Shown: in pieces, positions 22,641-64,000 of the stretch | How the letters are laid out: every line of letters starts with the position of its first letter | How positions within the stretch are numbered: the stretch's first letter is position 1 | Origin: Candidatus Nanohalarchaeota archaeon | GTDB taxonomy: Archaea > Nanohalarchaeota > Nanosalinia > Nanosalinales > Nanosalinaceae | DNA length: 64,000 bases | Direction of reading: 5' to 3' | NCBI GenBank assembly: GCA_022729235.1 | Contig: JALDAJ010000001.1 | Coordinates: 800,001-864,000 of the forward strand | The notes under the pieces: model-generated | What the model was told of the DNA's origin: nothing | Database searches by the model: none | What the model saw: the letters and a program-made list of their open reading frames with translations, nothing else | Made by a program: the position numbers and the translations under genes

Positions 22641-22712
22641 GCGGAGTTGGTCCAGTGGCTAAGACTCCAGCCTTCCAAGCTGGCGACCCGGGTTCAAATC
22701 CCGGACTCCGCA
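22641..22712 (+). tRNA. tRNA-Gly(TCC)
   Basis: GCGGAGT/ACTCCGC acceptor, CCAGC-CT-TCC-AA-GCTGG anticodon arm, GGTTCAAATCC. Confidence 0.96.
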
Positions 22713-24402: not shown

Positions 24403-24639
24403 TATGGTAGCATACTGCCTATACAGAGTTTTAATGACTACGAGCAGAGCTATGACAGCGAGGAATCGGTTGCCGGGAGAGTTCGACGACTTCTTTGAGT
24501 TCGTCGGTATGGAGACGCCTCCATGGTATCAGGAGGACTAGACTTCTTCGAATTCTTCTCTTATGTCTTCGATAATTTCTGTTATGTCGCCTTTGAATTT
24601 CCAGAGCACGATGCTTTCCTCGTCGCTAGGGTTGATGTG

Positions 24640-25005
24640 CTGGTGGTCCTGGAGGCTCAGCAGGCTGCTTTTGAAGTGCTTGAGCAGGGCGCGGGAGTTA
24701 CAACTACTGAGGTCTACGATGCGGTCTGCGACGTCCTGGAAGGGCACGGCTTCAAAACCTTGCGCGATGGAGATATCGAGGAAGGGTTTATCCACTCGGC
24801 GGGGCACGGTATCGGTCTGGAACTGCACGAGCCGCCGCGGATATCGGATAACAGTGAAGAGATCGAGGCGGGTACGGTCCTGACGGTGGAGCCGGGTCTG
24901 TACATTTCCTGTGTCGGAGGCGTACGTATCGAGGATATGGTTGTGGTTACTGAGGACGGCTACGAGAACTATAACTCGATGAATAAGGACCTGGAGCTCG
25001 GCTAG
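24640..25005 (+). pseudogene. C-terminal fragment of Xaa-Pro (M24B) aminopeptidase
   Basis: FIHSAGHGIGLELHE, TVEPGLY and GVRIED present; N-terminal half and Asp metal ligands absent; 5' boundary approximate. Confidence 0.75.
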
Positions 25006-25370: not shown

Positions 25371-26195
25371 ATGGATAGCTTTGACCCGAGCTTACTTCTC
25401 CTAGTTGTGGCAGCGTTCCTGGGAGTTCTATCGGTAGGATTGCTGGGGGTTCATGACGTATTCGGTATTTCACCTACCCTGAAGCTGATCGTGTTTTTCC
25501 TGGCTTCCTTGCTTTTCATACTGACAGGTGTTTACGTTGAAAGCCCGCTTGATTATTTTGCGTATCTACTGGCGGTTTCACTGTATCTTTCTGGTCTGTA
25601 CCAGATGACCTTTTTTGGTTTCGATACAGCCGTGTACTTTGCAGTGACTGCGGCAGGTTCAGCGTTTATGGTAGGAGCCAGTTATCTCATCCAGCAGGAT
25701 AGCCGGGAAGTATCTCGCGGAGATTTCAGGCTGTATTCTGCGGTACTTATGCTCTCTATCACGGCGTTTTTTTCCTATGGTATGTCGGCTCCAGAACCGA
25801 CATATACCTTTATAGCCAACGAGGCTCCGGTAGTAGAAGGAGATGCTATGGAGCTAGGTAAGTTGTCGGTACACAACCCATTCCTTTTCTCCAGCAGACT
25901 GGATTTCCCGGGTTATGATGTCTGCATGTCTGGTTCTGAAGGAGTGGTTTTAAGGGTTTCCGCGGAGGTAGGCGGGGATGAAAGAGCTGTCAGGGGCGGT
26001 GAGGTGAGGCAGTTTCCTGTTGTAGCGGACGTTGGCAGCGAGTTATTTGATGATTTTGATTTTGATAACAGGAGTATCGGAACTGCATCGGAATGCGTCT
26101 CGGGGTCTGAAAAAAGGATCTGGATCGTTTCATCACCGGGCTCGCAGTTAGAGGATGCTTCATCGGAGAACAGTTACCTGTTCCGCTTTCTCTAA
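25371..26195 (+). CDS. Membrane protein with 5 N-terminal TM helices and a soluble C-terminal domain
   Basis: Hydrophobic segments followed by a beta-rich domain containing two Cys. Confidence 0.7.
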   Translation: MDSFDPSLLLLVVAAFLGVLSVGLLGVHDVFGISPTLKLIVFFLASLLFILTGVYVESPLDYFAYLLAVSLYLSGLYQMTFFGFDTAVYFAVTAAGSAFMVGASYLIQQDSREVSRGDFRLYSAVLMLSITAFFSYGMSAPEPTYTFIANEAPVVEGDAMELGKLSVHNPFLFSSRLDFPGYDVCMSGSEGVVLRVSAEVGGDERAVRGGEVRQFPVVADVGSELFDDFDFDNRSIGTASECVSGSEKRIWIVSSPGSQLEDASSENSYLFRFL

Positions 26196-26508
26196 ACTTT
26201 CTGGTCCTCTATAGTCCGGACTAACCTCTATTTACCCAAAATTTTCTTCCTGATATAGGACTCCTGGAGGTTTTAAGCTGTCTATGAACTTTTTCTGAAA
26301 TAATTAAACGATTAAAAACAATTATTAGGCGTATTAAACGGTTATAAACAGTTATTAACGGAAAAACCCTTTTAAACAGGTTTTTACAATGGAAGAGCGT
26401 GGTTGAAATCATGAATGCTTTGAAGAATGCGGTTGAACAGGTAGCTGAACTCAAAAACCCTGAAAAAGAACTTAAAATAGAATCTGACTGTTTAAAAGGT
26501 CTGGAACG

Positions 26509-26826
26509 ATGAGCAGAGGATTTAGAAATCTTTTCATAAATCTTGAACCTGTTAAAATTCTTTTGACAGTTCGCAAGCAGAAAAAGATATCTGTTAAGGG
26601 GGCTAGCGAAAAGACAGGGGTTAGCCAGGATTACGCTCTTGATTCACTCGAGATGATGGCGGAGAACGGGCTGGTTAGGCGAGAAGACGAGGGTTACCTC
26701 ATCACCCCGTACGGAAAGTCGCTCTCAGAAAGTCTTCTGTTATTCCTTGATCTGGCGGAGAAAGTTGAGATACAGGAAGGCATGGTGAGCGAGCATGGTC
26801 TCGCGTTTATGGAGGGGAGACTATGA
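26509..26826 (+). CDS. Winged-HTH transcriptional regulator
   Basis: ASEKTGVSQDYALDSLEMMAENGLV...YLITPYG. Confidence 0.75.
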   Translation: MSRGFRNLFINLEPVKILLTVRKQKKISVKGASEKTGVSQDYALDSLEMMAENGLVRREDEGYLITPYGKSLSESLLLFLDLAEKVEIQEGMVSEHGLAFMEGRL

Positions 26827-27275
26827 GCGGGAGCAGTTCTTCCACACCGCCATCCCGGTCGAAGAAGGCGTTCGAAGAGGTAGAACTCCCGTTTGATATC
26901 ATCTCTGATGACCACATAAAGGGAGATAAACTACGTGAAGCTCTGAAAGCTGATGAAGTAGACAACTCGATGAGAGATTACTCGGTCTTCGATGTCGAGC
27001 AGGAAGACGACCTCTACGAGTTCAGGGCAGTCAAGGACAGCACATTTCCATACCTATTTCCGAGTAACGAGGCTTACATAGCATTTGAGCTGAGAGATTC
27101 AGATAAACACGAGTACAGCCATATGAGAGTGGAGATGGGTGCTCCTGATAAACGCGTTATGGATGAGCTATACCGCGGCGTGAGAGACCTTGAGAACGGT
27201 CTGGAGACGTACTTCAGGAACCAGCGTTTCGGAGATGGCAGGATTCAGAGGGCGGCGCCTCACACTGCTGATTAG
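26823..27275 (+). CDS. Hypothetical protein
   Basis: ATGA-coupled to the wHTH gene. Confidence 0.6.
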   Translation: MSGSSSSTPPSRSKKAFEEVELPFDIISDDHIKGDKLREALKADEVDNSMRDYSVFDVEQEDDLYEFRAVKDSTFPYLFPSNEAYIAFELRDSDKHEYSHMRVEMGAPDKRVMDELYRGVRDLENGLETYFRNQRFGDGRIQRAAPHTAD

Positions 27276-27284
27276 GCGTCTGCT

Positions 27285-27300
27285 TCTTTTTCTTCTCTTT
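27285..27300 (+). terminator. Oligo-T archaeal terminator-like tract
   Basis: tctttttcttctcttt just after the stop at 27275. Confidence 0.4.
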
Positions 27301-27345
27301 ATACTTTCAAAAGGTTTTATCTTGATAACTTACTAATACAGGCCT

Positions 27346-28347
27346 ATGGATGCGCAAAGAATCTTCCTTGGCGGAGTAGCAGCACTGCTGGTGCTTACAT
27401 CATTCCTGATGGTCGCACCGTTTCTGGGTTACCTGCTGTCAGCTATTCTGCTCGCGTTTATCCTGAAGCCGTTGCAGGAGAAATTAGGGTCTTATATAGG
27501 ACCTAATATCGCGTCCGGGATCATCATAATACTGTTTATATCCGCAGTGATAGCACCTTTCGGTATAGCGTTAAGCGCAGTTGTAGATGACGCCCAGCAG
27601 TTAGTTGATAACATAGGAGATGCCGAGTTCCTGGATTTTGACGAGATAGAAGAACTTATATTTGATTACACTGGTCAGGAAATCAACTTACAGCAAGAAA
27701 TACAGGCTGGGCTTGAAAGGTTTGCCGAGGTCGCGGTCGGCGGGTTCGCCCAGGTAGTTGACCTTATAACAGGAGTTCTCATAGGGCTGCTGATTATGAT
27801 ATTTGTTCTTTTCTACCTCCTGAAAGACGGTGAAAAACTCCATGCATGGGTGGTAGAGGTTACGCCGGTAGCAGAAGACCTGCAGGATGATCTGTACTCT
27901 AAGGCTGAGCTCATGACCTGGTCTGTATTGAAGGGTCACGTGCTGGTGGCTATAATAGAAGGTCTCATAGGAGGTCTTGGTCTCTGGCTCGCCGGCGTCC
28001 CGAACGTCGCGTTCTGGACGTTCATCATGATAATCCTTAGTTTCATCCCGGTTGTAGGTGCGTTCCTTGTATGGGCGCCAGCATCGATTTATCTCTTCCT
28101 GGTAGGAGAGCTCTCATCCGCTCTTTTCCTCTTCGTTTACGGGGCGGTAATCATCAGTCTGGCGGACAACCTCCTCCGACCGTACATGGTCGATAAAAGG
28201 GCGGAGATACATCCTGCAGCGATACTGATAGGTGTTATAGGCGGTATCTATGTGTTCGGTGCAGTCGGGTTATTCATCGGACCTATCATTTTCGGCTTCT
28301 CCAAGACTGTCCTGGATGTTCTTATGAGGGAGCAGTCAGAACCATAA
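27346..28347 (+). CDS. AI-2E family transporter
   Basis: FYLLKDG, IPVVG, DNLLRP, HP..ILIGVIGG, GLFIGP. Confidence 0.93.
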   Translation: MDAQRIFLGGVAALLVLTSFLMVAPFLGYLLSAILLAFILKPLQEKLGSYIGPNIASGIIIILFISAVIAPFGIALSAVVDDAQQLVDNIGDAEFLDFDEIEELIFDYTGQEINLQQEIQAGLERFAEVAVGGFAQVVDLITGVLIGLLIMIFVLFYLLKDGEKLHAWVVEVTPVAEDLQDDLYSKAELMTWSVLKGHVLVAIIEGLIGGLGLWLAGVPNVAFWTFIMIILSFIPVVGAFLVWAPASIYLFLVGELSSALFLFVYGAVIISLADNLLRPYMVDKRAEIHPAAILIGVIGGIYVFGAVGLFIGPIIFGFSKTVLDVLMREQSEP

Positions 28348-28348
28348 G

Positions 28349-28890
28349 CTAGGTATCGATACCTGCTTTATTCAGTCTTGAAAGGATGTCCTCCCTTTCG
28401 AGACCCCAGTCATCTATAAGTTCCAGTAAAAACTCTCTGTCAAACTCCTTGTTATTTAGAGACCTTAGGTCATTTCTATCCTTCTCCCGGTTCATCTTCG
28501 CCTTCAGAACAAATAGTTCTTCCAGAGGCGCGATATTCACTTTCTGTCCCAGAAATTCTTCTTCTCGCTGTGTTCGAACAGCTTCTGCATGTTATCTTCT
28601 TGAACCCTCTTAGGCGGAAAACCAGAACTGGCTTCAACTTCTATTCCTCTGAAAACAGTTTCAAAACCCTGGTCGTCGATGTGGTTGCCGTCTTTCACGT
28701 AATCCCTATCCTCGACTTCTGCACCTAATCTGCTGGCAAATTCTCCGATATCTTGTTCGCTCACGATGAAGTCTATATCACTGAGATCTCGGTTAGAGTC
28801 ACCGTAGAGTTTCACTGCCATACCTGAGAAAACTAGCCAGTCTAAGCCTTTGATTATGTCAAAAAGCTCAGAAAAGCCTTCTTTATCCAT
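28349..28890 (-). pseudogene. Frameshifted nucleotidyltransferase (MNT-like)
   Basis: SGMA..LYG..R..SDIDF in 28537-28890 continues in another frame as EEFLGQKVNIAPLEELFVLK...REKD; shift near 28560. Confidence 0.75.
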
Positions 28891-28938
28891 AACTGTACTA
28901 TATTCCGGAAAGATAAAAAAAGAAAAAGTACCTGGGTT

Positions 28939-29211
28939 CTAGAAGTCGCTGTCCTGAGCCCAGTTGTAGAGATAGGCGATAAGCGCTCCGCCAATCGCTC
29001 CGTCAACAACTGCCCACACTGTTCCGATTAATGTCCCTGTCAGGGTGGCTTCATAGCCTATATAGATAGAGGAAGCCAGTTCAACTACAGCGACTCCGTA
29101 ATCAGCGTAAGTCGCTAAAAGTCCGAGAACTAGTGCAAACAGTCCGCATGTAGCGGCTAGAGCGATAGCAAGAGACTTAACGTCAAGTTCTTCTGCCATA
29201 GAGTTTTTCAC
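28939..29211 (-). CDS. Small 2-TM protein (holin-like family)
   Basis: SIYIGYEAT..G..IG..WA..DG..GG.LIA.LYN pattern. Confidence 0.65.
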   Translation of the reverse strand: MKNSMAEELDVKSLAIALAATCGLFALVLGLLATYADYGVAVVELASSIYIGYEATLTGTLIGTVWAVVDGAIGGALIAYLYNWAQDSDF

Positions 29212-29303
29212 CTTGTTAAACAGTTCTGTTCGCTCATTAAAAAGCGCTTCTTATACCTGCCAAACAGCATAACCAATAAGAGTATGACGCCTAATCGTAA
29301 GAT

Positions 29304-30149
29304 ATGGTCTTCGGCAGGTTAAAAACAGGGCTATTACTGACAAAGGACAGCCTATTACTGATGCGGCATAACCCAAAATTAGGGCTGTTCCCGCTTGTAA
29401 GCGGTGCTGCCGGTTTTCTATTCCTCGCTATCTTCCTCGGAGTGACTTTCGGTCTAACGGCTGTTGCTCCCGAGGGTATAGCGCTTGCCGCACTGTTTTT
29501 CGTATACCTTGGACTGACGTTTATCTCATCGTTTTTCACCGCTGGCCTGGTGCACCAGACCCGTGAAGTACTGGAAGGCGGAGAAGCCTCTCTACGGGCA
29601 GGTATGGCAGGAGCGTGGAACGTGAAAAAGCCGTTACTGGTCTGGGCATTCATCAGCGCAACAGTCGGTATAATAATCAACGCAATCGAGAACTCTGACT
29701 CCCGAATGGCGCGTATCTTTGGCGTAATCTTCGGCGTCGCATGGACGCTTATGACATTCTTCATAATACCGGTGATAGTCTTCGAGAAAACCTCTACCAA
29801 GGGAATGTTTACAAGAAGCGCCAGTACTTTCAAACAGACATGGGGAGAGACCCCGATAAGTCTCATCGGAGTCCAGCTTGTCTCAGTAGCTGTTATGGCG
29901 GTGTTTGCACTACCCGCGATTTACCTGTTTTCCGTAGGAATTATTTCTATCGCTATCGGACTGGTACTGACCGGCGTACTACTTTCATTCCTCGCCGCAC
30001 AGACACTCCAGGGCGTGGTGAAAACGGTCCTGTACCTCTACGCAGCTACAGGGGCAAAACCAGGCGAGTTCAACGACATCGACTTCGATGACCTGGCAAG
30101 CAGCAAATCCCGCTCCTCGTTGACCGGTCCCGCAACCAGCTTCCAGTAG
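29304..30149 (+). CDS. DUF6159-like membrane protein
   Basis: WA.ISATVG, W.L.TFF.IPV..FE and FK.TWGE motifs. Confidence 0.75.
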   Translation: MVFGRLKTGLLLTKDSLLLMRHNPKLGLFPLVSGAAGFLFLAIFLGVTFGLTAVAPEGIALAALFFVYLGLTFISSFFTAGLVHQTREVLEGGEASLRAGMAGAWNVKKPLLVWAFISATVGIIINAIENSDSRMARIFGVIFGVAWTLMTFFIIPVIVFEKTSTKGMFTRSASTFKQTWGETPISLIGVQLVSVAVMAVFALPAIYLFSVGIISIAIGLVLTGVLLSFLAAQTLQGVVKTVLYLYAATGAKPGEFNDIDFDDLASSKSRSSLTGPATSFQ

Positions 30150-30179
30150 GCGTTATTACAATCGATATGCCTTTACTTT

Positions 30180-31169
30180 TTAGGTGTAGGCAACTTCTCT
30201 CTCGAAGAGCTGTTCTTCAGCCTCCTCTGGATCTTTCTCAGGGTCTGGTAGTTCTGCAGCCTTGTCGTAAGACACTTTGACTCTTACTTCAAATTCTTGC
30301 TCTTCTCTATCGCCTACCAGGTCCATAGGTTCTTCTCCATAAGGCTTTTTGATATCTGTTAGCAGGTGGATATGGCCTTCGTAGACGATTCCATCTCCTA
30401 CATCATAGGCGATGACTTCTGGCGTTCTTTCTTCACCCTCTCCTATGCATGACTCTATCCTGACCTCGTTTTTCTCTATGATATCTTCCATCAGAGCTTG
30501 ATGGATATCCTCGTCCATAGGGCCTCCATAATCTACGTTGGAGGTGTATTCTCTGATAAGAGGGGAGAAAAATTCTTCAAATTCGTCTACATCAAGATTA
30601 ACGCTGGTTGCTCCATCTAGTTTAATTTTCTTTTCTTTTCCAGCATAATTGCTTACCACAGTCTTAATTTTCTGTAAATAGCTACTATTTTTCCGATCAT
30701 TGTACTTTTCCACTCCTTTAAGAATCCTTTTTATGCCTTTTAATTCCTCTTTACTAGATTCTCTGGGTCTTAGCATGCTTTTAACGCATTTCTTTGTGAC
30801 TTTCGCGGTCTTTTTTAGACCAAGTGAAGGAGCCCTATTTCTCACGGGGTTAGAAGGATTACCATCGTAATCGATATGTCTGCTACGGGCTCCTGTTTTT
30901 AATTTGTAGCCTGAAGATGTTCTTTGAATACTGTGATCTCCATCATTCAACTCTTCCACACCGTCTTCACTCACGTCCAGTATATATCTTTTACCTCCTT
31001 TTTTTCCGATATACCTTCCGTCATCCATCTTCCATACAGTATGGAAGCCTCTGCTCAGCTTCTCTCCGTCTGAGTTATAGAAAGCGCTGGTAGCACCTCT
31101 TCCTTTGATTTCAAGGCCTTCTTCCACTTCTCCATATACTTCGTTAAGATCTTCTTCAATACTCTTCAT
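30180..31169 (-). CDS. Hypothetical protein (beta-repeat-like N-terminus)
   Basis: 329-aa ORF. Confidence 0.6.
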   Translation of the reverse strand: MKSIEEDLNEVYGEVEEGLEIKGRGATSAFYNSDGEKLSRGFHTVWKMDDGRYIGKKGGKRYILDVSEDGVEELNDGDHSIQRTSSGYKLKTGARSRHIDYDGNPSNPVRNRAPSLGLKKTAKVTKKCVKSMLRPRESSKEELKGIKRILKGVEKYNDRKNSSYLQKIKTVVSNYAGKEKKIKLDGATSVNLDVDEFEEFFSPLIREYTSNVDYGGPMDEDIHQALMEDIIEKNEVRIESCIGEGEERTPEVIAYDVGDGIVYEGHIHLLTDIKKPYGEEPMDLVGDREEQEFEVRVKVSYDKAAELPDPEKDPEEAEEQLFEREVAYT

Positions 31170-31261
31170 AAATTGTTATTTCCTACTACTAATTCATAAG
31201 TTCCGAATAATATAATTAGGCCAACCGCGCTCAGAGTAACAGACAGTTAAACGCTGATTAA

Positions 31262-31273
31262 AAGCCCCGCCCG
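31262..31273 (-). repeat. Putative distal att site (duplicated tRNA 3' end)
   Basis: 12-bp identity with 63905-63916. Confidence 0.65.
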
Positions 31274-31891
31274 GACGTACTACCAAGCGTTCAAAGCCCT
31301 CAATCGAAACACGGCGTGGCGAAAGGGCTAGCGACCTAGAGATATTTATAGCCCATTGGAAAAGTGGTGAGGGGCTACGAATCAAGGGTACAAAGCCCCA
31401 GAAGAAAACAGGAAACTGTATTTGTAATAAAAAATCATAAAAGACTAAGGGCTAAATCCGTCTTATGAACCAAGGTGGATGCTTTTGGTTTGCATTCGTT
31501 AATTAGTTCTTGTAGCTATAGCTTTATCGCGGGTGACTGTTTTTGGTAATTTCTTACTGAATAAATATCCTACTTCTGTTCAAAACTATTCTAGAATTAG
31601 TTCTGTAAGAAATATTTCTTGGTTGCTATTAAAACATATTTTATGACTATCTAGAACTTCTCAATAAGTTTAAAGCTCAAAGAGCTGTATTTATGCCGTT
31701 TTAAGTCTTCTAAATCGATATAAGGCATTTAAAGCTTTTGTAATAATGTAGAATCGCGTGATTGAAATGACAAACAGCATGCAAGCCAAAATAGCAGAAG
31801 CCCAGAAGGGTGGATGCTTTTGGAGCATTAAAATCTAGTATCAGTCGTGGTGAGTTAGGCCTCACTGGGCTTGAGAAAGGAGGTGAAATCA

Positions 31892-32338
31892 ATGGTAAGA
31901 GATGAACTTCCGTCTACTCCGCAAATAGAAGCTGTTGAAGAGGTGCTTGAAGATCGAGGTTACGAGGCCAGGGAAACTAATCTAACTAGGGTGAAAAATA
32001 GTGATGAAACCTTCGAATACACGAGCTTCAGGAAGAGTCCTGTAAATTCCTCGTTGGTTTATGACCAAGAGACGGGAGATGTTGTACAATTATCCGTCGC
32101 TCTTCCAAAAGGGAGGCCTTATGATTCAGAAACGGGACTTCATGATCTGGATCCAGATGCAGTTCAATCAGCGATTGACTATCTGCAGAACGAGGATAGG
32201 ATAGAGTACGATGACGAATTAGGATCTATAACAGCTAGATTTGAACCTCAGGAAACGCCTGAAGAAACGGCTGATCTACTGGAGGAGACGGCAGAAGCAG
32301 TGGAGACTGTTGCGGACATTAGAGAGGCTCTAAGCTAA
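31892..32338 (+). CDS. Hypothetical protein (cassette 1)
   Basis: AGGAGGTGA SD before ATG 31892; T-rich terminator after the stop. Confidence 0.7.
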   Translation: MVRDELPSTPQIEAVEEVLEDRGYEARETNLTRVKNSDETFEYTSFRKSPVNSSLVYDQETGDVVQLSVALPKGRPYDSETGLHDLDPDAVQSAIDYLQNEDRIEYDDELGSITARFEPQETPEETADLLEETAEAVETVADIREALS

Positions 32339-32593
32339 ACAAACGTTCATATATCTACTTTTTTCTTTTACTTACTCTCTTCTAGGTAAAGAAAGTTCAG
32401 AATTAGAGAAACAGACAGAAAATACAAGGGGCTTTTGTAGATTATTTGTCTAAATCTTAAAATTCAACCGAAATATGCACTCTCCTATCTAGATATTATT
32501 TAAATGCTGAAGGCTGTATTTCTTTTGAAAATCCAAACGAAACAAGGAGAGGCGAAGAATAAGTCGATAAACGACTGTGAACGCTTGAGAGGG

Positions 32594-32670
32594 AAGCCCC
32601 GTTTTGAGGTATGAATGTTGACTTCAACATCTCATACTGAGATTGCGGTGAAACCCCGAGAGGTATACTA
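32594..32670 (+). repeat. AGCCCC-TTTT-GAG...GTGAAACCCCGA structured repeat, copy B
   Basis: Shares AAGCCCCGTTTTGAG with 33394 and GTGA(A)CCCCGA with the other copies. Confidence 0.6.
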
Positions 32671-32717
32671 TGATTTAGTCCGCAAGTTAATTAAGAATAT
32701 TTTGCTATCAATAAGTT

Positions 32718-33353
32718 ATGACAGGTTGGTCTGTGGTTGAAACCGAGTATTCATCTGAGGGAAGACCAGAATACGAACAGATTTTTGTTAATGGAGATTC
32801 GGAGGCTGTAGAGAATTTGAATGAGGTATATTTAGAAGAGAGACTAAATGGATTTTCCTTCAAGGATGCAGCAGAGAACCTGTCAAACGCACAGAGAAAT
32901 GGTAAAAGTAGAGAAAGCTCAGGAGATATAATTTATCCTGCAATTACAGAGGATGGTTATCGTTGGCGAGAAGAAATAATCAGAAGTGACGGCAGCTGGA
33001 GAAAAAGTATTCCATTCGTAGATTATCAAGAGATAGCTGTCTTATTTCCGCAAAAACGCTCAGGAATTAATCCCGATGATTTGGATGATGGCGAGATAGG
33101 TTTGGGTGCCTTACTCGTTGGGCAAGGATACAGTGCTGAAGAAGCACAAAGAATAGCTAAAGAACGGAAAGAAGCAACTAAAGAGGCTGTAGAAAATAAT
33201 CCGTATCTACGAGATACACACTTTCTAGGAGACCGTTCCGTAGCAGTATACGCAACAGATAATGTAGAAACTAACGGGGCTGAAGAATTTCTCTGGGAAT
33301 TGGCAGATGCTTTAGAGAAAGAAACAGTAGATAAGCAATTTGGAAATAAATGA
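32718..33353 (+). CDS. Hypothetical protein (cassette 2)
   Basis: 211-aa ORF followed by the hairpin AGCCC-gcact-GGGCT. Confidence 0.65.
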   Translation: MTGWSVVETEYSSEGRPEYEQIFVNGDSEAVENLNEVYLEERLNGFSFKDAAENLSNAQRNGKSRESSGDIIYPAITEDGYRWREEIIRSDGSWRKSIPFVDYQEIAVLFPQKRSGINPDDLDDGEIGLGALLVGQGYSAEEAQRIAKERKEATKEAVENNPYLRDTHFLGDRSVAVYATDNVETNGAEEFLWELADALEKETVDKQFGNK

Positions 33354-33393
33354 TAAAATAAGCCCGCACTGGGCTCTTGAACATAACGCTTAT

Positions 33394-33490
33394 AAGCCCC
33401 GTTTTGAGTTCGGGTAATCGGGTTCAAAAGCCCACAAACTAGTGGACAGTGACCCCGAGGTCAGTATTTAGTTTTGTATAGACAAATGTT
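33394..33490 (+). repeat. Structured repeat, copy C
   Basis: agccccgttttgag..gggttcaaaagcccacaa..gtgaccccgagg..tagaca. Confidence 0.7.
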
Positions 33491-33511
33491 TTAACTTATT
33501 GTTTGGTTATT

Positions 33512-34768
33512 CTAGATTGGATTAATAGCAGAAACCTCAGGTATGTATATTAAGGCATCAAAGTTTTCTCTAAGTCTCAGTTTGTCGTAGTGATCTTCAA
33601 TATTTTCAAGATGGAAATAAGTTCCTGCAGTATGGAGTCTGTGTTCTTGAGTTATCCATTCCTTCAGTCCTTCATTTGGTATGCCTGTAAAGTCTAGGAA
33701 GAATGGTTCTTGAATCTGATCTAGTTCTTGAGCTAGAGTGTCTTCGTGTAGTTTTTCAAATGATCTTTCTCCCTCCCAGTTAGGCTGTGGTTCTTCCATA
33801 TCGAGGTATTTGAATGATCCTGTTCCGAAATCAAAGCCGATGGCGTAATAGTCTTCCCCGTATTTCTGATCTAGATAGTATCCGAGTGCCTTTGATTCAG
33901 GGTTTTCAGGTTTCCCTCCTTTCTTGATGTGAGCGTTATGTGACCAGACAAATGCCTTTTCTTCATCTTCGAAATCCATCATCCAAGAAATATTTTCCGC
34001 CATACTTTGGTCACGGAAAGTCCAAGAATCTATATCAAGTTCAGCATTCTCATTTACGGCTAAACAGAACTTTCTACACTGCTCAAGTATCACTACTAAC
34101 TGCTTCAATAAGTTGTATTCTTTCTCAGAAATAATTTCCAGATACTCATCCTGCTTCTGCTTGACTTGATTCTCCAAATCTGTGATAAAGTCTTTGAGTT
34201 CCGCTTCTTTTTCTTTATCTATTTCTGCGAACATCATCTTTCCTTGCTCCATAAACTCCAGAGTCTCATTATTTGCTTCAATAAAGTCTCTGTCAACTTT
34301 CTGCATAATTTTCCGCAGCTTCTTGAAAGAAGCAATATCATTCTGCATATCAAAGCCATAGAATCTGACTTTCTCCTCATCTGAAACCTGCTTATTATGT
34401 TCTCGAACCCATTCCACCAAGTTCAAAATTTCTTCTGTTCTGAATATAGGCGAGCTTATCGAACTCAGTGCTTCTTCAGCCGTTCCTTCTCCGTTAACAA
34501 CATAGTTGTTGATTTCAAGCGTTTCTCCAAACGATGCTTCCCAAGCGAATATACGGTAGTCTAACTCTTCAACAAGAAATCGAAAGAATCTGCGTCTAAC
34601 CTGATGAAACTCTTTAGTGGAGTGTGTAGCTTCGCCTATACCAATGATTTTCCTGTTCTCAAGTGTTTCTTTCGGTATTTGGAAGTCTTCAAAAGGATTT
34701 TCTGAAGAAATCTTAAGCGGAGTTGAATAAGATTCTAACTGATTTGATATATTCTCTTGAGAAGACAT
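33512..34768 (-). CDS. Erythromycin esterase (EreA/B-like) family hydrolase (cassette 3)
   Basis: IGIGEATH, FYGFDMQ, RDQSMAEN, WSHNAH and FDALIYI motifs. Confidence 0.92.
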   Translation of the reverse strand: MSSQENISNQLESYSTPLKISSENPFEDFQIPKETLENRKIIGIGEATHSTKEFHQVRRRFFRFLVEELDYRIFAWEASFGETLEINNYVVNGEGTAEEALSSISSPIFRTEEILNLVEWVREHNKQVSDEEKVRFYGFDMQNDIASFKKLRKIMQKVDRDFIEANNETLEFMEQGKMMFAEIDKEKEAELKDFITDLENQVKQKQDEYLEIISEKEYNLLKQLVVILEQCRKFCLAVNENAELDIDSWTFRDQSMAENISWMMDFEDEEKAFVWSHNAHIKKGGKPENPESKALGYYLDQKYGEDYYAIGFDFGTGSFKYLDMEEPQPNWEGERSFEKLHEDTLAQELDQIQEPFFLDFTGIPNEGLKEWITQEHRLHTAGTYFHLENIEDHYDKLRLRENFDALIYIPEVSAINPI

Positions 34769-34955
34769 AGAACACAAATTTACATTTTCAGGCTTAAATC
34801 TCTGGAATTCTCGAAATACTTAACACTAACGAAAATTACGGCAATATCTTTCAATAACTAATTGTGACAAAAAATATCAACTTCAAATGCTCGTATGAGA
34901 AATTCTAAACCAAAAAACCTGTTATCAGAACCTGATAGATACAAATATAGTGTTT

Positions 34956-35050
34956 AGCCCCTTTTCGAGCTTGGGATGTAGGGTTCGAAAGCCCACAATC
35001 CCTTGGTGAACCCCGAAGGGTTGTAATGTCGGTCTACATAGACAGTTTTT
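34956..35050 (+). repeat. Structured repeat, copy D
   Basis: agccccttttcgag..gggttcgaaagcccacaa..ggtgaaccccgaagg..tagaca. Confidence 0.7.
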
Positions 35051-36051
35051 TATGAATTCTGAATTCTGTGAGCTACATCTGATGAACTGAATAGTCTGGC
35101 GTCTTTAGATACCGTCAATATGGTCTCTCCATCATACTTGTGTTCAATCTGCTGAAGCAGTTCCTCCAGGAATTCTAGTTCTTCATTAGTAAATACATCT
35201 ATCTGCTCTAGAGCTACGTCTAGGCTAGCCTTAACTTCCTCATAAGATATTGTATCTGAAATTTGAGGTTTCATCGTTTCTAATTTAATCTCTGAAAGAA
35301 CATCTTCTATGTCTTCCATACCGATACTGTCTTCAAGATGTAGGAATATGGATGCGCCGTGTTTCAGGAGAAGATATTTTGGCTTCTTGTCGTGTAGTGG
35401 GAGGAATATTTTGTGGGAGCTTTCCATTTCTTCAGGGTTCTTTTTGACTCCTTTCAGAAAGCTCTTGATTATCGTTACCTTTTCCGTTGATTCAAGCTCT
35501 TCTCTTACATCGTATTCTTCTAGAAGGTCGTCATAAATTTCTGACGCATAATCTTCCAGTTCTATAGTTTTTTCTTCCTCAATTTTTCTGATGATTTTTC
35601 CCAGTAATTTGTCCATCGAAACTTTTTCTTCTCCTATGACGATTTCTTCTTCCAATATGGAGTTATCTTCTAGACCGTGGTAAACTGCGGTTTTATAGGA
35701 TTTTTCTCCGTCAAGATTAATTTTGACCGAGGTATTCTGTGGTTTAGTATGTTTGATGCTTTTCTCGTCGCTAAAACGGGATGAGAAGCTGTAAATTACT
35801 TGTTTGTAGTCTTCGTTTATCCTGATGGCGTGAGGTCTGGTGCTTTCATCCTTTATTATAAGATTACTCTCTTTCAGCCTACCTAGATTTCTGGATACAG
35901 CATCTCTTTCATATGGGACTCTATCTACGATTTCGTTTACCGAGAATTCTTCCTTATCTGAGTTATGCAGAACTTGTAGTATACAGTCCATAGTTCGATT
36001 GTAATGGACGTATCCTTCTTCTCTGTTAATGTGGTATCCCTCCTGATACAT
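35050..36051 (-). CDS. N-terminal wHTH protein (putative regulator)
   Basis: FSVNEIVDRVPYERDAVSRNLGRLKESNLI; divergent from the MCM operon. Confidence 0.65.
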   Translation of the reverse strand: MYQEGYHINREEGYVHYNRTMDCILQVLHNSDKEEFSVNEIVDRVPYERDAVSRNLGRLKESNLIIKDESTRPHAIRINEDYKQVIYSFSSRFSDEKSIKHTKPQNTSVKINLDGEKSYKTAVYHGLEDNSILEEEIVIGEEKVSMDKLLGKIIRKIEEEKTIELEDYASEIYDDLLEEYDVREELESTEKVTIIKSFLKGVKKNPEEMESSHKIFLPLHDKKPKYLLLKHGASIFLHLEDSIGMEDIEDVLSEIKLETMKPQISDTISYEEVKASLDVALEQIDVFTNEELEFLEELLQQIEHKYDGETILTVSKDARLFSSSDVAHRIQNS

Positions 36052-36230
36052 TATGTATTACCCGCGGATACATAAAAAGGGTTTGGTCGGCAATCATCCC
36101 ACAGGATGAAAGAATCCAAGAAAACCTCGGCGAACACGCAAGAAAACAGTATTAGGGTCGGCGTAGAACTTCCTTCACACTCTGCGCCGACTCCAACATT
36201 TTTCCTGATTTCAGCCAGGAGGTGTAGAAA

Positions 36231-36743
36231 ATGGCAGTAACCGACGGACGAAGAAAATTCCGCTGTGGTAAGTGTGAGGAAGAAATCGAAGAATGGGACA
36301 GAACTCCTGAAAGCGACAGCCACGACTTCAAATGTCCAAACTGCAACAAGCCTCATATTCATCACCGAACTGACGCTTTCGAGGAACTGATTCCAGTAAG
36401 TGAAGAAGACGGCGAACACCAGAACGTGTTCATTACTACTACAGGTAGGAAAATTCACGGCATAGACTCCGTACAACGCCTCCTGACAGAAGCAACTTCC
36501 AAGAAAACCTGTAAAAACTGTCACGCAGAGAAACACGAAGACTGGGAATACAGCAAGTCTCCAAACTACGACCTTGCCTGTCCAGAGTGCGGGAAGAAAC
36601 ACTTAGAAGACACCAACAAGCTGATTCCAGTCGATAAAGAAGGAAACCGTCAAGACGTGATGGAGGACTCAAGAGGACGGACATATATAGGAGAGGAAGA
36701 GATACAGGAAGCCCTAGAAAAACTGAAGGAGGAGATAGAATGA
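36231..36743 (+). CDS. Duplicated zinc-ribbon protein
   Basis: Two CxxC..CPxC..LIPV..D.. internal repeats; AGGAGGTG SD. Confidence 0.75.
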   Translation: MAVTDGRRKFRCGKCEEEIEEWDRTPESDSHDFKCPNCNKPHIHHRTDAFEELIPVSEEDGEHQNVFITTTGRKIHGIDSVQRLLTEATSKKTCKNCHAEKHEDWEYSKSPNYDLACPECGKKHLEDTNKLIPVDKEGNRQDVMEDSRGRTYIGEEEIQEALEKLKEEIE

Positions 36744-36865
36744 AGCGCAATCGTTGTGATAGATGTGGTAGCGACGATATTGCAGTAAACAACAACTCTG
36801 ACTCTATAAATCGGAGAACTCTACGTTGCAGAGAATGCGGGAAAACAGGGTTCGAGGTGTTCTAG
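36740..36865 (+). CDS. 41-aa zinc-ribbon microprotein
   Basis: MKRNRCDRCGS...LRCRECG; ATGA overlap and GGAGG SD. Confidence 0.7.
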   Translation: MKRNRCDRCGSDDIAVNNNSDSINRRTLRCRECGKTGFEVF

Positions 36866-36960
36866 TATGGTAAAAAATACTGCTATGAAACTCAATCAGA
36901 ATTCAGGTTATCGCAATTTATTCACGGAAAATCTGGTCAGAAAAGAGAAGGTGGTTAGGG

Positions 36961-37182
36961 ATGAATAGACAAGAGCTATTTCTCTATAACTACTACGGTT
37001 GTCCTCCGCCTCCTCCAGAAAAGAGGGATGAGGAATGCACAGTAGAAGGTTGTGCGGAAAGTGCCTGGATACAAGGTAATTGTCCCGACCACCTCTCTTT
37101 TGACTTAGCTACAATCTGGTCAGGACTGGATAACACAAAATCTGCAAACGAATTCCTGAAACTTCTAGGTCATAAGGTATGA
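36961..37182 (+). CDS. Small Cys/His zinc-binding protein
   Basis: CTVEGC...G.CPDH motif. Confidence 0.6.
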   Translation: MNRQELFLYNYYGCPPPPPEKRDEECTVEGCAESAWIQGNCPDHLSFDLATIWSGLDNTKSANEFLKLLGHKV

Positions 37183-37532: not shown

Positions 37533-37829
37533 ATGGATTATCCTCTTTCGACTCCTTTTAAACTCTACTGCTGGACTCAAAGCAGTGTATACTACATCTT
37601 CTATGAACACTGTGAAGGCTATGAACGTCCCCATAAACTCGGTTTAGACCTTCTGTTGAGAGAAGTCAATCTATGTCCTGTCTGTGAAGGTTATGAATCC
37701 AGATTTCACAGGGGTCAGTGTAGGTTTACTGACTTTATTCTAGAGCTAGACGTTTTAAACGAAAAATATGACAGAAATAACAGGGTTCAAAGGGTTCATA
37801 ACCCCTCCATAGGAGGGGTTGTAGAATAA
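37533..37829 (+). CDS. Hypothetical protein with CPxC
   Basis: TAATG-coupled to MCM. Confidence 0.5.
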   Translation: MDYPLSTPFKLYCWTQSSVYYIFYEHCEGYERPHKLGLDLLLREVNLCPVCEGYESRFHRGQCRFTDFILELDVLNEKYDRNNRVQRVHNPSIGGVVE

Positions 37830-40090
37830 TGAGTAACAACCAGAAGCTGAATGAGAAAAGAAGAAAGATACTGAACTATCTGAAAAACAGTGGCGAGCAG
37901 ACAACCAAGAAAATCTTCGAAAACTCAGATACCGATTACAGTTCGAAAAACTCTCTCAATAATGCCCTGAATCGTCTCAAGAATCACGGATACCTGAAAA
38001 AGACAAATCCAAAAGGTCAATCAAATTACTGGAAACTTACAGAAAAGGGAAGAGAAGCAATATCTGCTAGAAAGATTGATGTAAAAGATAGTACTTTAGA
38101 ATATGGAGAATTAGTTAGAAGACTGGGAGATTTTGTACAAGAAAAATTACAGGATGATATTGCGCACGCTATCAAGAAAGATAAAAAATCTTGGATAGAG
38201 GTCAGTCTTCCAGACTTGGACAGATTCGATAAAGAAATAGTGAATAAATTGCTGAAAGACCCCGACACGGTACTAGAGGCATTTGAAGAAGTAGTAGAAA
38301 ATAGTTCTCTGGTAGGTAGAGAAGATTCTTTGGAAGTTAGGATTGTAGATTTGCCTGAAGAAGATACAGTAAAACTTTCAGAGATTTACAGCGAAAATAT
38401 AGGTCATTTCGTAGCGGTGGAAGGAATTATTACCAATAATATACTCTCAAAACCTGCAGTTAAATCAGGTATATTCGAGTGTGCAAAGTGTGGAGACCAG
38501 TACAAGAAAGAACAGGACTCCTCTCACCTAAAATCACCATATAAATGTGAATGCGGTTCTAGAAAATTTGAGGTTGTAGAAAAGATTCTGCAGGACACTA
38601 AGACAATTAGTATACAGGAGAGAACCAGCAAGCCGAATCCCAGGAAGCGTGAAGTATACCTGGAAGGCAGTCTAGCAAGAAATAAAGAATTAGAGAACGC
38701 CAGCCTTGGTTCTTTAATTAGAGTAAATGGTATTCTACGAGACCGTCCTCTCAAGAAAAATTCCAAGAAGCTAGAACCCTATATAGAGGCAAACTCTATT
38801 GAGTTCAAGGACAAGAACGAAGTGGAAGAAATAAGTGAGGAAATACAAGAACAAGTACAAGAATTATCTAAAAACCCTGAAATAAAAAGCAAGCTCAAGG
38901 AATCGGTAGCCCAAGGGAAAATCGGAGGTCTTGACCGTGTCAAAGAAGGATACCTACTTTATAGGCTTGGAAAATTTCCAGAAGGAGATATACATCTTCT
39001 GATAGCAGGAGAGCCAGGAGTCGGAAAATCTGAACTAGTTTCAACCAGCGCAGAAACACTTCCTAGAACAGTATATACGGTACTTGAAAATTCTACAAGT
39101 ACAGGTATTACCGCATCGCTCACTGAAGACAAGAAGAAAGGAGGATATGAAGTAAATGCTAACGCTCTTGTAAAAGCAGATGACGGCTTCTTTATAGGTG
39201 ATGAAGCAGGAAAATTTAACGACTCTTACAGTTGCTTCAATACGCCTATGGAGGATGGAGAAGTAAATAGGTCTGCAGGAGATAAGGATATTAGACTGCC
39301 TGCGAAGGCGTCTGTCTGTCTAGTTATGAATCCGTCAGACGTGAATGATAGAAGGTGGGATGGAAAGCCGTCAATAGATGATTTACCTGTAAGCTCTCAA
39401 AGTGATATTTTAAGCAGATTCCATCTCAAAATAGCTATACCCAGTCAGGAAATAGGGGGAAGTGACAGTTTACGGAGAGAAATTAGAAAGGCGGAGAAGG
39501 TTCTTTCATCTGATGAAAACAGAGCAGAGCTTGACCTAGATATTTACCGTGCATATCTTTCAGTAGCTGAAGATATAAATCCAGAAATCTCAGAGGAGGG
39601 TGAAGAACTTCTAAAACGTATCTATGTAGGACTATCATTAAAGAATTACACTTTATCTCCAAGGACTTTGATTGCGTTAAAGAGGATAGCAAAGGCGTAT
39701 TCAAGAATACGTTTGGAGAATAAAGTCTCTGAAGAAAGAGTAATAGAGGCTTACATATTCTGGAAAGAATGTCAAGCTACTCTCTATGAGGAGTTTAGAG
39801 AGGAAAAGCGAAGGGTCACAGAATCTAGTGGATTTCAGAAACAGAAACCGTCTCTATTAGGTGAACTTCTGGAAGTGCTCAGTAGAAATAATGGAAGAAT
39901 GAGGAAGGAGGACTTAAAGGAGGAGCTGGAGCTTGGGGGTTCGGAATCTAAACGGGAAAAAGTTTTTGGAGAGTTAATTGAAGACGCCTTGGAGCAAAAT
40001 GCAGTATCGGAAGAAGGACAGTTTATATATCTGGAAAAAGAGCCTGACTTTTTCGGAGGAGAAGTTGTAGAAATCTTGGAGAATATCTAG
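37829..40090 (+). CDS. mcm: MCM-family helicase of the mobile element, with N-terminal wHTH
   Basis: CAKCG..CECGS zinc finger, GEPGVGKS Walker A, FIGDE Walker B, SRF Arg finger, SPR sensor 2. Confidence 0.9.
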   Translation: MSNNQKLNEKRRKILNYLKNSGEQTTKKIFENSDTDYSSKNSLNNALNRLKNHGYLKKTNPKGQSNYWKLTEKGREAISARKIDVKDSTLEYGELVRRLGDFVQEKLQDDIAHAIKKDKKSWIEVSLPDLDRFDKEIVNKLLKDPDTVLEAFEEVVENSSLVGREDSLEVRIVDLPEEDTVKLSEIYSENIGHFVAVEGIITNNILSKPAVKSGIFECAKCGDQYKKEQDSSHLKSPYKCECGSRKFEVVEKILQDTKTISIQERTSKPNPRKREVYLEGSLARNKELENASLGSLIRVNGILRDRPLKKNSKKLEPYIEANSIEFKDKNEVEEISEEIQEQVQELSKNPEIKSKLKESVAQGKIGGLDRVKEGYLLYRLGKFPEGDIHLLIAGEPGVGKSELVSTSAETLPRTVYTVLENSTSTGITASLTEDKKKGGYEVNANALVKADDGFFIGDEAGKFNDSYSCFNTPMEDGEVNRSAGDKDIRLPAKASVCLVMNPSDVNDRRWDGKPSIDDLPVSSQSDILSRFHLKIAIPSQEIGGSDSLRREIRKAEKVLSSDENRAELDLDIYRAYLSVAEDINPEISEEGEELLKRIYVGLSLKNYTLSPRTLIALKRIAKAYSRIRLENKVSEERVIEAYIFWKECQATLYEEFREEKRRVTESSGFQKQKPSLLGELLEVLSRNNGRMRKEDLKEELELGGSESKREKVFGELIEDALEQNAVSEEGQFIYLEKEPDFFGGEVVEILENI

Positions 40091-40566: not shown

Positions 40567-41664
40567 ATGAATGAAGAAGACGTCGATGAAACCATAGATG
40601 AAATCTTTGATGATTATGCCCAGTACCAGGAAGAAAACTACATAGACTTCGACAAGTTCCTCAACCACTATCGAGGCGAACTCTCCAAGAACACCTTGGT
40701 TACCTACGGAAGAGCTTTGAAGTTCATCGACTTTGACCCTCTAGCAGATTCCCCAGAACCTGAGTGCCTGGATGAAGAAGAACAGGAAAAGTTTGACCTG
40801 TCGCAGTTTGAAAGTCTTTGGTCAAAGCGGAAAATGAAGGAAGTATGTGGGAAGGTTGACAAAAATCGTGCTACCAGGAACAGACAGTCGTACCTCTGCT
40901 GGCTCGCTCTCAAGAAATACTACAAAGCGGTAGGTGAAGCAGGGAGAATTGAAGAACTCCCGAATTCCTCTGATTTTGATAATAGAAGCAGTAGCGGAGA
41001 TACAAGCGATACTGATGACTATGTAAAGGTCAGTCTTGAGGAAAGCCAGATAGAACAAATGATGGATGTAGCAGATGAAAAAATGAAGAATGCGCTGATT
41101 AATCTTTACCACGGAGGTATGAGAAGCTATGAGCTACTTCACGCAACATACAAGTGGTACGATTTCTCTTTGGAGGGACGAATAGAGGTAGAAGTCCCAG
41201 CTAAGTATGCGAAAGGTCGCCGAGGGAATCGTTCCTCTGAAAAACTCTATATTAAAGAAGAGTTCCAGGAAGCTCTCCAAAACTACATTTTGGATGTTCA
41301 CAATTTCGATGGAAGTTACAGTGACTTTCTGAAACAGGTAGATGAGGGTAAGGAGCAGTATCTGTTCAACTTCAAACAGGAAACGAATAAGTCATTCAAA
41401 GATTTGAGGGTAGAACGCTGGCGTCTATGGGAGTCTATCCGCTCTGTGGCGAAGGATGCAGGTCTTAATGAGGAAGATGTGAAGAGCTTAAGCAGTCACG
41501 ATTTTCGCACGAACCAAATCCGAAAAGTCTATGACACCGTTAATGACCTTAAGAGGACTGCCCTGGTTGCACGGCACGCTTCATCGAATACTACAGAAAA
41601 ATTTTACCTAAACAAGGATGAGCAAGAAAAACTGGAAACCTACAAAGAAGCATTTGAAGAATGA
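40567..41664 (+). CDS. Tyrosine recombinase (Xer/Int-like)
   Basis: GMRSYE, K, HDFR, RH...TT..FY catalytic residues. Confidence 0.88.
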   Translation: MNEEDVDETIDEIFDDYAQYQEENYIDFDKFLNHYRGELSKNTLVTYGRALKFIDFDPLADSPEPECLDEEEQEKFDLSQFESLWSKRKMKEVCGKVDKNRATRNRQSYLCWLALKKYYKAVGEAGRIEELPNSSDFDNRSSSGDTSDTDDYVKVSLEESQIEQMMDVADEKMKNALINLYHGGMRSYELLHATYKWYDFSLEGRIEVEVPAKYAKGRRGNRSSEKLYIKEEFQEALQNYILDVHNFDGSYSDFLKQVDEGKEQYLFNFKQETNKSFKDLRVERWRLWESIRSVAKDAGLNEEDVKSLSSHDFRTNQIRKVYDTVNDLKRTALVARHASSNTTEKFYLNKDEQEKLETYKEAFEE

Positions 41665-45551: not shown

Positions 45552-45599
45552 ATGACTTCACTGGAAAGAATTAAAACCAATTTTGTGTGATGTAGTATT

Positions 45600-63827: not shown

Positions 63828-63905
63828 GTCGCCGAAAGGCTTGTAGTGGGAAAACCGTTTCTATTCACCCACAAAGAGTGTGGGCTTTCGAAACGATTTT
63901 CACGA

Positions 63906-64000
63906 AGCCCCGCCCGAGATTTGAACCCGGGACCTCGTCCTGTTTGTTGACTGATTCCGCCGTAGGCGGCGACCACCGAAGTGTGGTCCTTGCGTGTGGA
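63906..64000 (-). tRNA. 3' exon and part of the intron of a tRNA truncated by the window end; Thr-like acceptor, isotype unverified
   Basis: Minus strand GGACG-AGGTC-CCGGG-TTCAAAT-CTCGG-GCGGGGC-T, preceded by hairpin-rich intron-like sequence. Confidence 0.8.

Follow-up and report, generated by a model that had tools for sequence, protein, structure and literature searches.

A tandem array of single-gene cassettes at a tRNA-Thr gene of a Candidatus Nanohalarchaeota archaeon, bounded by repeats tied to a tyrosine recombinase

The window analysed here is a 64,000-nucleotide stretch (positions 800,001 to 864,000, forward strand, of contig JALDAJ010000001.1, assembly GCA_022729235.1) of a Candidatus Nanohalarchaeota archaeon. 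The genome (G000; other G and L handles denote relative genomes and metagenome or genome loci, and C numbers denote contigs) is a single contig of 1,027,595 bp with 48.5% GC, a full archaeal small subunit rRNA and intron-bearing tRNAs. The part of the window considered is occupied, in order, by repeat site A, cassette 1, site B, cassette 2, site C, cassette 3 (an esterase-family gene), site D, a 29-kb element and a tRNA-Thr gene. An original prediction, made from the letters alone, had described the repeats as related elements of an integron-like array with exactly one gene between successive copies, and one open reading frame (ORF) is indeed found in each interval between A and D. The features of the array are as follows.

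31262 to 31345, plus strand: site A, the distal junction (core 31263–31268), a 12-nt copy of the tRNA-Thr(GGT) 3′ end followed by a divergent right arm with a GTTCAAAGCCC box
31871 to 32338, plus strand: cassette 1 gene, 155 aa, no family match
32595 to 32679, plus strand: site B (core 32595–32600), right arm of the ATCTCATACTGAGAT-hairpin subfamily
32718 to 33353, plus strand: cassette 2 gene, 211 aa, no family above cut-off
33355 to 33394, plus strand: left arm (type ii) of site C, hairpin AGCCCGCACTGGGCT then CTTGAA, 13 nt ahead of the core
33395 to 33480, plus strand: site C (core 33395–33400), right arm carrying the box GGGTTCAAAAGCCCACA
33512 to 34777, minus strand: cassette 3 gene, 421 aa, erythromycin-esterase family (PF05139 at 1.7e-61)
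34820 to 34955, plus strand: left arm (type i) of site D, box CTTCAAATGCTCGTATGAG and CCTGTTATCAGAACCTGATAG, homologous to the left arms of G016 and G042
34956 to 35040, plus strand: site D (core 34956–34961), core and right arm, the distal end of the large element

Sites B, C and D constitute one family of ∼80 nt. A repeat search with C as the reference (100%) gives 79% for D and 65% for B over 43 nt, and all three are recovered at E-values of 1e-15 to 1e-23 by a hidden Markov model (HMM) and a covariance model (CM) built from the sites. The predicted relatedness of the four repeats thus holds for B, C and D, whereas A is divergent and is not recovered by the models. Despite this divergence A retains the core, the 12-nt copy of the tRNA end and the GTTCAAAGCCC box, which lies 26 nt from the core (27 nt for the box in C). 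After AGCCCC the right arm opens with NTTYYGAG and continues through a palindromic stretch of variable sequence to the box (G)GTTCRAAAGCYCAYA; GGTGA comes next, and then a short hairpin whose loop is YGAR. Two further details of the prediction are borne out: AACGCT stands before A, B and C, and an inverted box lies between the integrase and the tRNA. The latter belongs to the 14-mer TTCRAAAGCCCACA, which occurs in exactly three copies genome-wide (both strands searched), all inside the island, at 33423 and 34984 on the plus strand within C and D, and at 63879 on the minus strand. Site B is 85–89% identical to two sites on contig C5 of G052. The cassette 1 protein has a homologue with 46% identity in a cassette that adjoins tRNA-Thr(TGT) in G042, and the cassette 3 protein, far under the cut-offs for EreA/B/D, shares 88% aa identity with a cassette gene of G016, the gene being present in 3 of 50 genomes of the family.

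The core of the repeats is tied to the tRNA gene at the end of the island. AGCCCC is the final 6 nt of tRNA-Thr(GGT), comprising the discriminator and five acceptor-stem bases, in agreement with the predicted match between the repeats and the tRNA attachment site (att). The 12-mer AAGCCCCGCCCG, representing the last 12 nt of this tRNA on the plus strand (63905–63916), has an exact copy at 31262–31273, and genome-wide it occurs three times, at site A and at the ends of tRNA-Thr(GGT) and tRNA-Thr(CGT). The tRNA 3′ end is therefore directly repeated over 12 nt at the far end (31262, 63905), and over 6–7 nt at B, C and D. Between the two AAGCCCCGCCCG copies of the window the GC content is ∼0.37–0.45, compared with 0.43–0.52 over the first 30 kb. 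The element enclosed between D and the tRNA, and the tRNA itself, have these features.

34956 to 63905, no strand assigned: integrative element of 28,950 bp, from D to the tRNA, with MCM helicase, defence genes, HerA-like ATPase, RadC and Int1
37829 to 40090: MCM helicase, within the 28,950-bp element
40567 to 41664: second, divergent tyrosine recombinase (PF00589 at 4.3e-08), directly after the MCM gene
62442 to 63827, minus strand: Int1 tyrosine recombinase, 461 aa (PF00589 at 1.6e-17)
63830 to 63905, plus strand: integrase-side left arm (type ii), with the inverted right-arm box TTCGAAAGCCCACA on the minus strand at 63879–63892 and the hairpin CCCACA/TGTGGG, 13 nt from the core
63906 to 64053, minus strand: tRNA-Thr(GGT), its 5′ part past the window end, with a 76-nt intron; its last 6 nt (63906–63911) are the core

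The 5′ end of the Int1 gene is 78 nt from the 3′ end of the tRNA-Thr gene, and Int1 homologues with 46–54% identity likewise adjoin tRNA-Thr. A related 21.9-kb element on contig C14 of G052 (L045 and L075) begins with a right arm, encodes MCM centrally and ends with RadC and an Int1 homologue (48% identity). At L074, two sites precede a 6.2-kb element, and the Int1 homologue of this element (54% identity, 224 aa) abuts tRNA-Thr(GGT). The same two-ended structure, in which a right arm stands opposite an end made up of integrase, inverted box, core and tRNA-Thr, is thus present in G000, the G052 C14 element and L074; a further contig, G065 C15, includes the integrase end only. The integrase-side arm, which nhmmer identifies as an inverted copy of the right-arm box, has in all four the form of a hairpin CCCAC...GTGGGCT, YTYGAA, 11–14 nt and AGCCCCG. 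Near-identical integrase ends adjoin a tRNA-Thr(GGT)-type sequence in G052 C14 and tRNA-Thr(TGT) in G065 C15, and because these two targets share AGCCCCG only, we infer that strand exchange takes place inside the 6–7 bases AGCCCC(G).

These properties bear on whether the array is a classical integron, or a cluster of attC sites without integrase as reported in other archaea. Such a system would likewise present mostly single-gene cassettes between partly palindromic sites of ∼80–160 bp, and many of the arrays in relatives have no nearby integrase. Int1, however, attains only 31.1 bits against a cut-off of 265 for TIGR02249, and 22.7 bits against a cut-off of 435 for NF011946. A regular-expression search for RYYYAAC...GTTRRRY over 31001–35300 on both strands finds no pair at A–D and one candidate pair per strand, in the esterase gene near 34594–34728. 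Moreover, the insertion point is a tRNA end and the cassette genes point both ways. The sites are therefore distinct from classical attC, as had been proposed, and the classical integron has next to no chance of being the correct explanation.

The element and the cassettes also differ in their content of GATC. The 29-kb element (34956–63905) has none against 103.3 expected, whereas cassettes 1 and 3 are normal (5 observed against 4.6 expected, and 5 against 5.2, respectively); cassette 2 has none against 2.6 expected. Over the whole genome GATC is mildly depleted (2583 observed versus 4005 expected). The prediction had noted GATC in cassettes 1 and 3 and its absence from the island body, and had taken this to suggest different origins of the units; both the counts and the separate origin of these units are upheld. 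With GATC absent from the element and normal in cassettes 1 and 3, site D marks a boundary between DNA of different histories. The 21.9-kb relative on G052 C14 is likewise devoid of GATC (0 observed versus 79.5 expected), and this avoidance in both elements suggests selection by a GATC-directed restriction or modification system in the hosts of these elements. The 29-kb element itself carries defence cargo (43785–52942 and 57376–58989) comprising a GmrSD-like type IV enzyme (PADLOC HEC-06 at 3.5e-55), a 1201-aa type IIG restriction-methylase/DrmMI-like protein, a 1245-aa HKD(PLD) and Snf2 helicase protein (C3a139, 1e-76) and the HerA-like ATPase. Near its distal end are two overlapping ORFs (36051–36602 on the minus strand and 36231–36743 on the plus strand), both with homologues near the right arm of related elements (G052 C14, L074), such that a gene at 36051–36743 is conserved in three integrase-bearing elements.

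The site family extends well beyond this genome. The search of relatives with a covariance model that the prediction had called for, here a sequence-only model, locates sites in 18 of 50 genomes of the archaeal family, spanning 14 of 21 genera. A model built from 25 sequences returns the same 18 among 70 genomes of the class, and none of the 20 genomes of four sister families has a site. Of the 18 site-bearing genomes, 9 have a tRNA-Thr gene (GGT or TGT) no more than 10 kb away, encoded on the strand opposite the site and with its 3′ end pointing to it; in the other site-bearing genomes the hits are mostly at contig ends. A pattern scan of metagenome contigs gave 14 loci, 12 with a right-arm match, of which seven are distinct and new once two loci identical to known arrays and overlapping contigs are dropped (L068/L070, L064/L069 and L072/G013 overlap, represent the same loci and add no strain variation). 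At five of these seven, tRNA-Thr is present in the same geometry. A left-arm pattern search of the genome collection returned 29 loci, five of which (L086, L089, L092, L105 and L106) also have a right-arm, Int1 or tRNA-Thr match, while the remaining 24 have no such feature and were taken as chance matches. In a viral collection, the integrase search found a sole relative, 25% identical and without sites, and the right-arm pattern matched no contig; the left-arm pattern matched four contigs that have no site, integrase or tRNA-Thr and were also taken as chance matches.

The array of G016, which belongs to another genus and has three site copies in a DNA search of relatives, directly abuts tRNA-Thr(GGT) and illustrates how the junctions are built. 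Its order is flank–core–right arm, the esterase gene with a 113-aa ORF, a site, a DUF2268 protease, a site, a 375-aa ORF, and left arm–core–tRNA. The internal junctions consist of left arm, core and right arm, and the tRNA-side junction of the same left arm and core, followed by the tRNA. Across the arrays, the small units between sites measure 0.26–2.6 kb, mostly contain one accessory gene in either orientation relative to the site, lack an integrase, and occur in runs of up to at least 3–4. Their cargo includes DUF2268 protease, phosphodiesterase, APH/fructosamine kinase, lipoate ligase, CDF transporter with ArsR, and methyltransferase. In G000, L074 and G052 C5, such integrase-less, att-bounded units stand in tandem with an integrase-bearing element. 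Two types of left arm are distinguished: in type i the box is direct and about 55–70 nt from the core, and in type ii it is inverted and 13–15 nt away. Arrays are present in G016, G060, G013 and G042 although a PF00589 match is found nowhere in these assemblies (the control matched in 14 of 14 genomes), and these genomes appear to be without even a Xer-type recombinase. The completeness of the four assemblies is 96%, 77%, 79% and 92%, respectively. The complete genome G054 has two PF00589 matches, both far from its sites.

Comparisons between relatives place homology breakpoints at the core. The segment 33395–34816 of G000 matches G016 at 89.8% over 1428 nt, compared with 69.8–76.5% for the syntenic chromosome, and the match starts at the core A. 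A cassette with a 220-aa gene is shared between G052 C1 and G013 (81% over 607 nt) and its match also starts at the core, whereas the match of a kinase-family cassette (83% aa) shared between G051 and G017 (86% over 1144 nt) ends at the core; past that end, G017 continues into the tRNA and G051 into another right arm. L066 and G060 share a distal cassette (92.6% over 927 nt, starting at the core) and differ in their tRNA-proximal cassettes, their tRNA genes being 97–100% identical outside an intron. L066 moreover has a 258-bp unit that is bounded by two full sites and has almost no coding capacity. Array content and order vary among close relatives, where the prediction had named an invariant order and the want of any link to integrases or variable genes as the observations that would speak against it. 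The patterns of cassette homology are compatible with serial insertion at the tRNA-side junction.

A different view of the repeats, which the prediction had itself put forward as its alternative, is that they are genes for a small structured RNA or signals for transcription (a terminator, an insulator or a promoter module), with an incidental link to the tRNA. Folding is the evidence in its favour. Over 25 sites the right arms fold better than dinucleotide shuffles (mean z of −1.25 on the site strand and −1.65 on the opposite strand, −0.62 for left arms), although the single-sequence folds of A–D are unremarkable (z of −2.6 to +0.26). In a covariation alignment of the 25 sites from 17 genomes, ungapped over its first 48 columns, the third, terminal hairpin (TGACC/GGTCA versus AACCC/GGGTT; 4–5 bp, YGAR loop) has 73.7% of cells paired versus 65.3% in shuffles, and 13 cells changed on both sides versus 5.2, with 0 of 500 shuffles as high in either measure; it also beats slid partners. 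Two mutually exclusive central hairpins are weakly above shuffles (5/500 and 1/500 for cells paired). The first hairpin, TTTTGA/TCAAAA, is not above shuffles (96/500) and RNAalifold returns 0 consensus pairs on the 25 sites; the three hairpins with compensatory changes originally described are partly borne out. A long-range helix that would join CCTTTY, past the core, to GARAGG, close to the arm's end, reaches 85% pairing but has no covariation and is equalled by shuffles (500/500), and was rejected. Related sequences can beat shuffles in such a test without any structure, and folding of part of the right arm is no more than possible. Against an RNA gene or signal, Rfam at the gathering score finds only two tRNAs over the window, and nothing at E≤1 over 31000–35300; the genes face both ways relative to the site; the repeat always starts with the last 6 nt of the tRNA and marks the homology breakpoints; and it also forms the end of integrase-bearing elements. 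We consider an RNA gene or transcription signal very improbable.

Taken with the tRNA link, these data support the assignment of the repeats as recombination sites that are tied to a tyrosine recombinase and a tRNA attachment site and that delimit single-gene units. The prediction had offered either gene capture by a tyrosine recombinase or tandem accretion; with insertion at the 3′ end of tRNA-Thr and the integrase on a 29-kb mobile element of its own, the latter is a better match than an integron platform. Our preferred explanation, with a probability of roughly two in three, is that the array arose by repeated site-specific insertion at the tRNA-Thr 3′ end, with integrase-less cassettes using the integrase of the large element. 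The catalyst would be a recombinase of the Int1 type, carried by a plasmid- or provirus-like element that encodes MCM and is free of GATC. It would join the site of the element (left arm, AGCCCC(G) and ∼80-nt right arm) with the last 6–7 bases of tRNA-Thr(GGT) or tRNA-Thr(TGT), and the conserved TTCRAAAGCYCA box and hairpin would constitute an arm site for protein binding. Every insertion would rebuild a 'left arm–core–tRNA' junction, so that the next insert enters there and older units are displaced outward, the internal junctions becoming complete 'left arm–core–right arm' sites. Small units with the same arms would act as integrase-less cassettes, travelling either as circles acted on in trans or in cis, when cassette and neighbour excise together through an outer site, and orphan arrays would remain once the integrase-bearing element is lost.

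Several observations weigh against this explanation. Site A is matched by neither the HMM nor the CM. Two sites lie more than 10 kb from any tRNA, one in G054 at 388014 with a mutated core and the other on G052 C1. Int1 homologues at E≤1e-5, a threshold that catches any tyrosine recombinase, are found in 9 of 18 genomes with sites and in 16 of 32 without, which is no enrichment. The tRNA-proximal junctions are heterogeneous, with 3 of 16 typed by regular expression as type i, 7 as type ii and 6 as neither. Some cassettes share their left-arm type with integrase-bearing elements, as deletion derivatives would. No excision product, circular cassette or empty site was seen in the one run available, which is stored as contigs and is probably the source of the assembly; over 30000–37000 it provides one covering contig with no differences and no joints, and two unrelated short pieces, and is uninformative either way. 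Two other runs from that study contain almost none of this sequence, and no RNA run with it was found. Finally, the right arm shared between G051 and G017 is a mosaic whose first ∼55 nt differ, and for this reason not all exchange can be assigned to the core; homologous recombination between arms may contribute. The mosaic switches partner just ahead of the right-arm distal box, A(A/C)CCCCGA(G/A)(A/G)GG (32650–32665 in site B, 35007–35020 in site D). This box resembles the tRNA-Thr(TGT) 3′ end of relatives, AGCCCCGAGAGGG (ends of L056 and L076 compared), and may be a second, cryptic core.

The sharing of left-arm types leads to the view that the small units are decay products of serially integrated full-length elements, in which internal deletion from the first gene to the left arm has removed the interior and the cassettes have no mobility of their own. 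Cassette 2 of G000, the cassette of G051/G017 and others do end in the type ii left arm that is found beside integrases, arrays occur in genomes without any integrase, and tandem integrations and degenerate remnants at tRNAs are described for tycheposon islands (10.1101/2020.12.28.424599). However, tblastn with Int1 and Int2 detects no integrase fragment within the small units of the contexts examined, its matches being confined to the flanks of sites on G052 C5, G052 C1 and G053. Type i left arms are conserved between cassettes and genomes, and among the arms examined none adjoins an integrase. One and the same cassette is met with in different genera, with its boundary at the core; cassettes 1 and 3 are normal in GATC beside a GATC-free element; and the 258-bp unit of L066 lies between two full sites with near-zero coding capacity. 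Decay by deletion is on balance unlikely. Serial insertion of cassettes at the tRNA end can also be carried further, to an independently evolved counterpart of the integron: free one-gene cassettes with a two-armed site of ∼160 bp would be captured serially at the tRNA-Thr 3′ end by a non-IntI recombinase from a plasmid- or virus-like element, the arrays would outlive the recombinase as an intergenus gene pool, and the hairpin would point to recognition of a folded strand as in attC. This extended proposal is tentative, and we hold it to be somewhat doubtful.

The surroundings of the array provide further observations. The intron of tRNA-Thr(GGT) is polymorphic, being 76 nt long in G000 (63906–64053), 103 nt in G060 (L041 8232–8406) and absent in G016 (L009 17257–17328) and L066 (117–188). 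A tRNA-Gly(TCC) gene at 22641–22712 faces tRNA-Thr from the opposite end of the whole variable region, and in G013 (L054) the array occupies the gap between the same tRNA-Gly/tRNA-Thr pair. Synteny between G000 and G016 ends at tRNA-Gly, and G001, of the same genus, has no DNA match to 26000–31261, so that the original empty site could not be reconstructed. On these grounds the segment 22713–31261, which includes a truncated M24 peptidase ORF (24523–25005), may be older accreted material. In G056, a 70%-identical esterase-family gene is located ∼30 nt 3′ of a tRNA-Arg(CCT)/tRNA-Ala(CGC) pair (L081, contig C7, 1280–2760 of the locus); as it has no site, it speaks neither for nor against cassette transfer, and the locus is possibly another tRNA-linked hot spot.

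Compared with known systems, the array together with its integrase-bearing element is best supported as integron-like in outcome but made of different parts. As in integrons, ordered arrays of mostly single genes are formed, each cassette has its own partly palindromic site of ∼80 nt, insertion is beside one fixed primary site, arrays without integrase are frequent and the same cassette is found in unrelated hosts. Unlike in integrons, the recombinase is of a type other than IntI and attC R/L boxes are absent; the place of attI is taken by the last 6–7 nt of tRNA-Thr as primary site; the integrase is on a separate mobile element of 6–29 kb occupying the same site and not on a fixed platform; the cassette genes face both ways, which precludes a common promoter; and folding of the site is only possible. 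The archaeal integrons in print are classical IntI/attC systems, and a tRNA is unmentioned in the accessible portion of their description (10.1101/2022.02.06.479319).

Accretion is a further point of comparison. The cis-mobilizable elements (CIMEs) of Streptococcus thermophilus are integrase-less, att-flanked elements beside ICESt1/ICESt3; their sizes run from kilobases to tens of kilobases, and they are considered to derive by deletion from bacterial conjugative elements. In both cases, integrase-less att-bounded units stand in tandem with an integrase-bearing element at one chromosomal att, and co-excision through an outer site would mobilise them. The present units differ in being 0.26–2.6 kb, mostly of one gene, up to at least 3–4 in a row, archaeal, and equipped with a dedicated conserved right arm.

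The tycheposons of Prochlorococcus (10.1101/2020.12.28.424599) are tyrosine-recombinase elements with a replication module and cargo at tRNA 3′ ends of small streamlined genomes, and in their islands later integrations push earlier elements into the island, where remnants accumulate. Integration at a tRNA 3′ end, successive displacement, remnants and small genomes are thus common to both. Whereas partial-tRNA separators and fragmented integrases are described there, the tRNA repeat here is 6–12 nt, the element-derived arms are conserved across genera and the cassettes are minimal. Of the tycheposon-type traits, the separators here have only AGCCCC(G) in common with the tRNA, and tblastn finds no integrase fragments within the small units. 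A further difference from both tycheposon islands and CIMEs is that arrays with at least three one-gene cassettes recur in several genera. The 29-kb element, with MCM, an integrase beside a tRNA and a short direct repeat of the tRNA end, also resembles archaeal integrated plasmids and proviruses, and MCM is common on archaeal mobile elements according to a 2025 nanohaloarchaeal virus preprint (10.1101/2025.02.15.638363). The known cases are, however, described as single elements or simple tandems and not as arrays of one-gene cassettes that share the att arms of the element. No description of such arrays was found in the full-text literature or in the accessible text of that preprint, the search covering main texts and not supplementary files, which may hold element lists.

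For archaea with genomes of ∼1 Mb that depend on a host, few routes of gene gain are known, and a recurring, tRNA-anchored array of exchangeable cassettes would be one. Arrays occur in roughly one in three genomes of a single family, with cassettes common to several genera, and they account for assembly breaks at the tRNA-Thr locus of these genomes. The recombination system is compact, with a 6–7-nt core, a right arm of ∼80 nt and two types of left arm, and indicates that integron-like stockpiling of genes can arise from an ordinary tRNA-targeting integrase and short, portable att arms.

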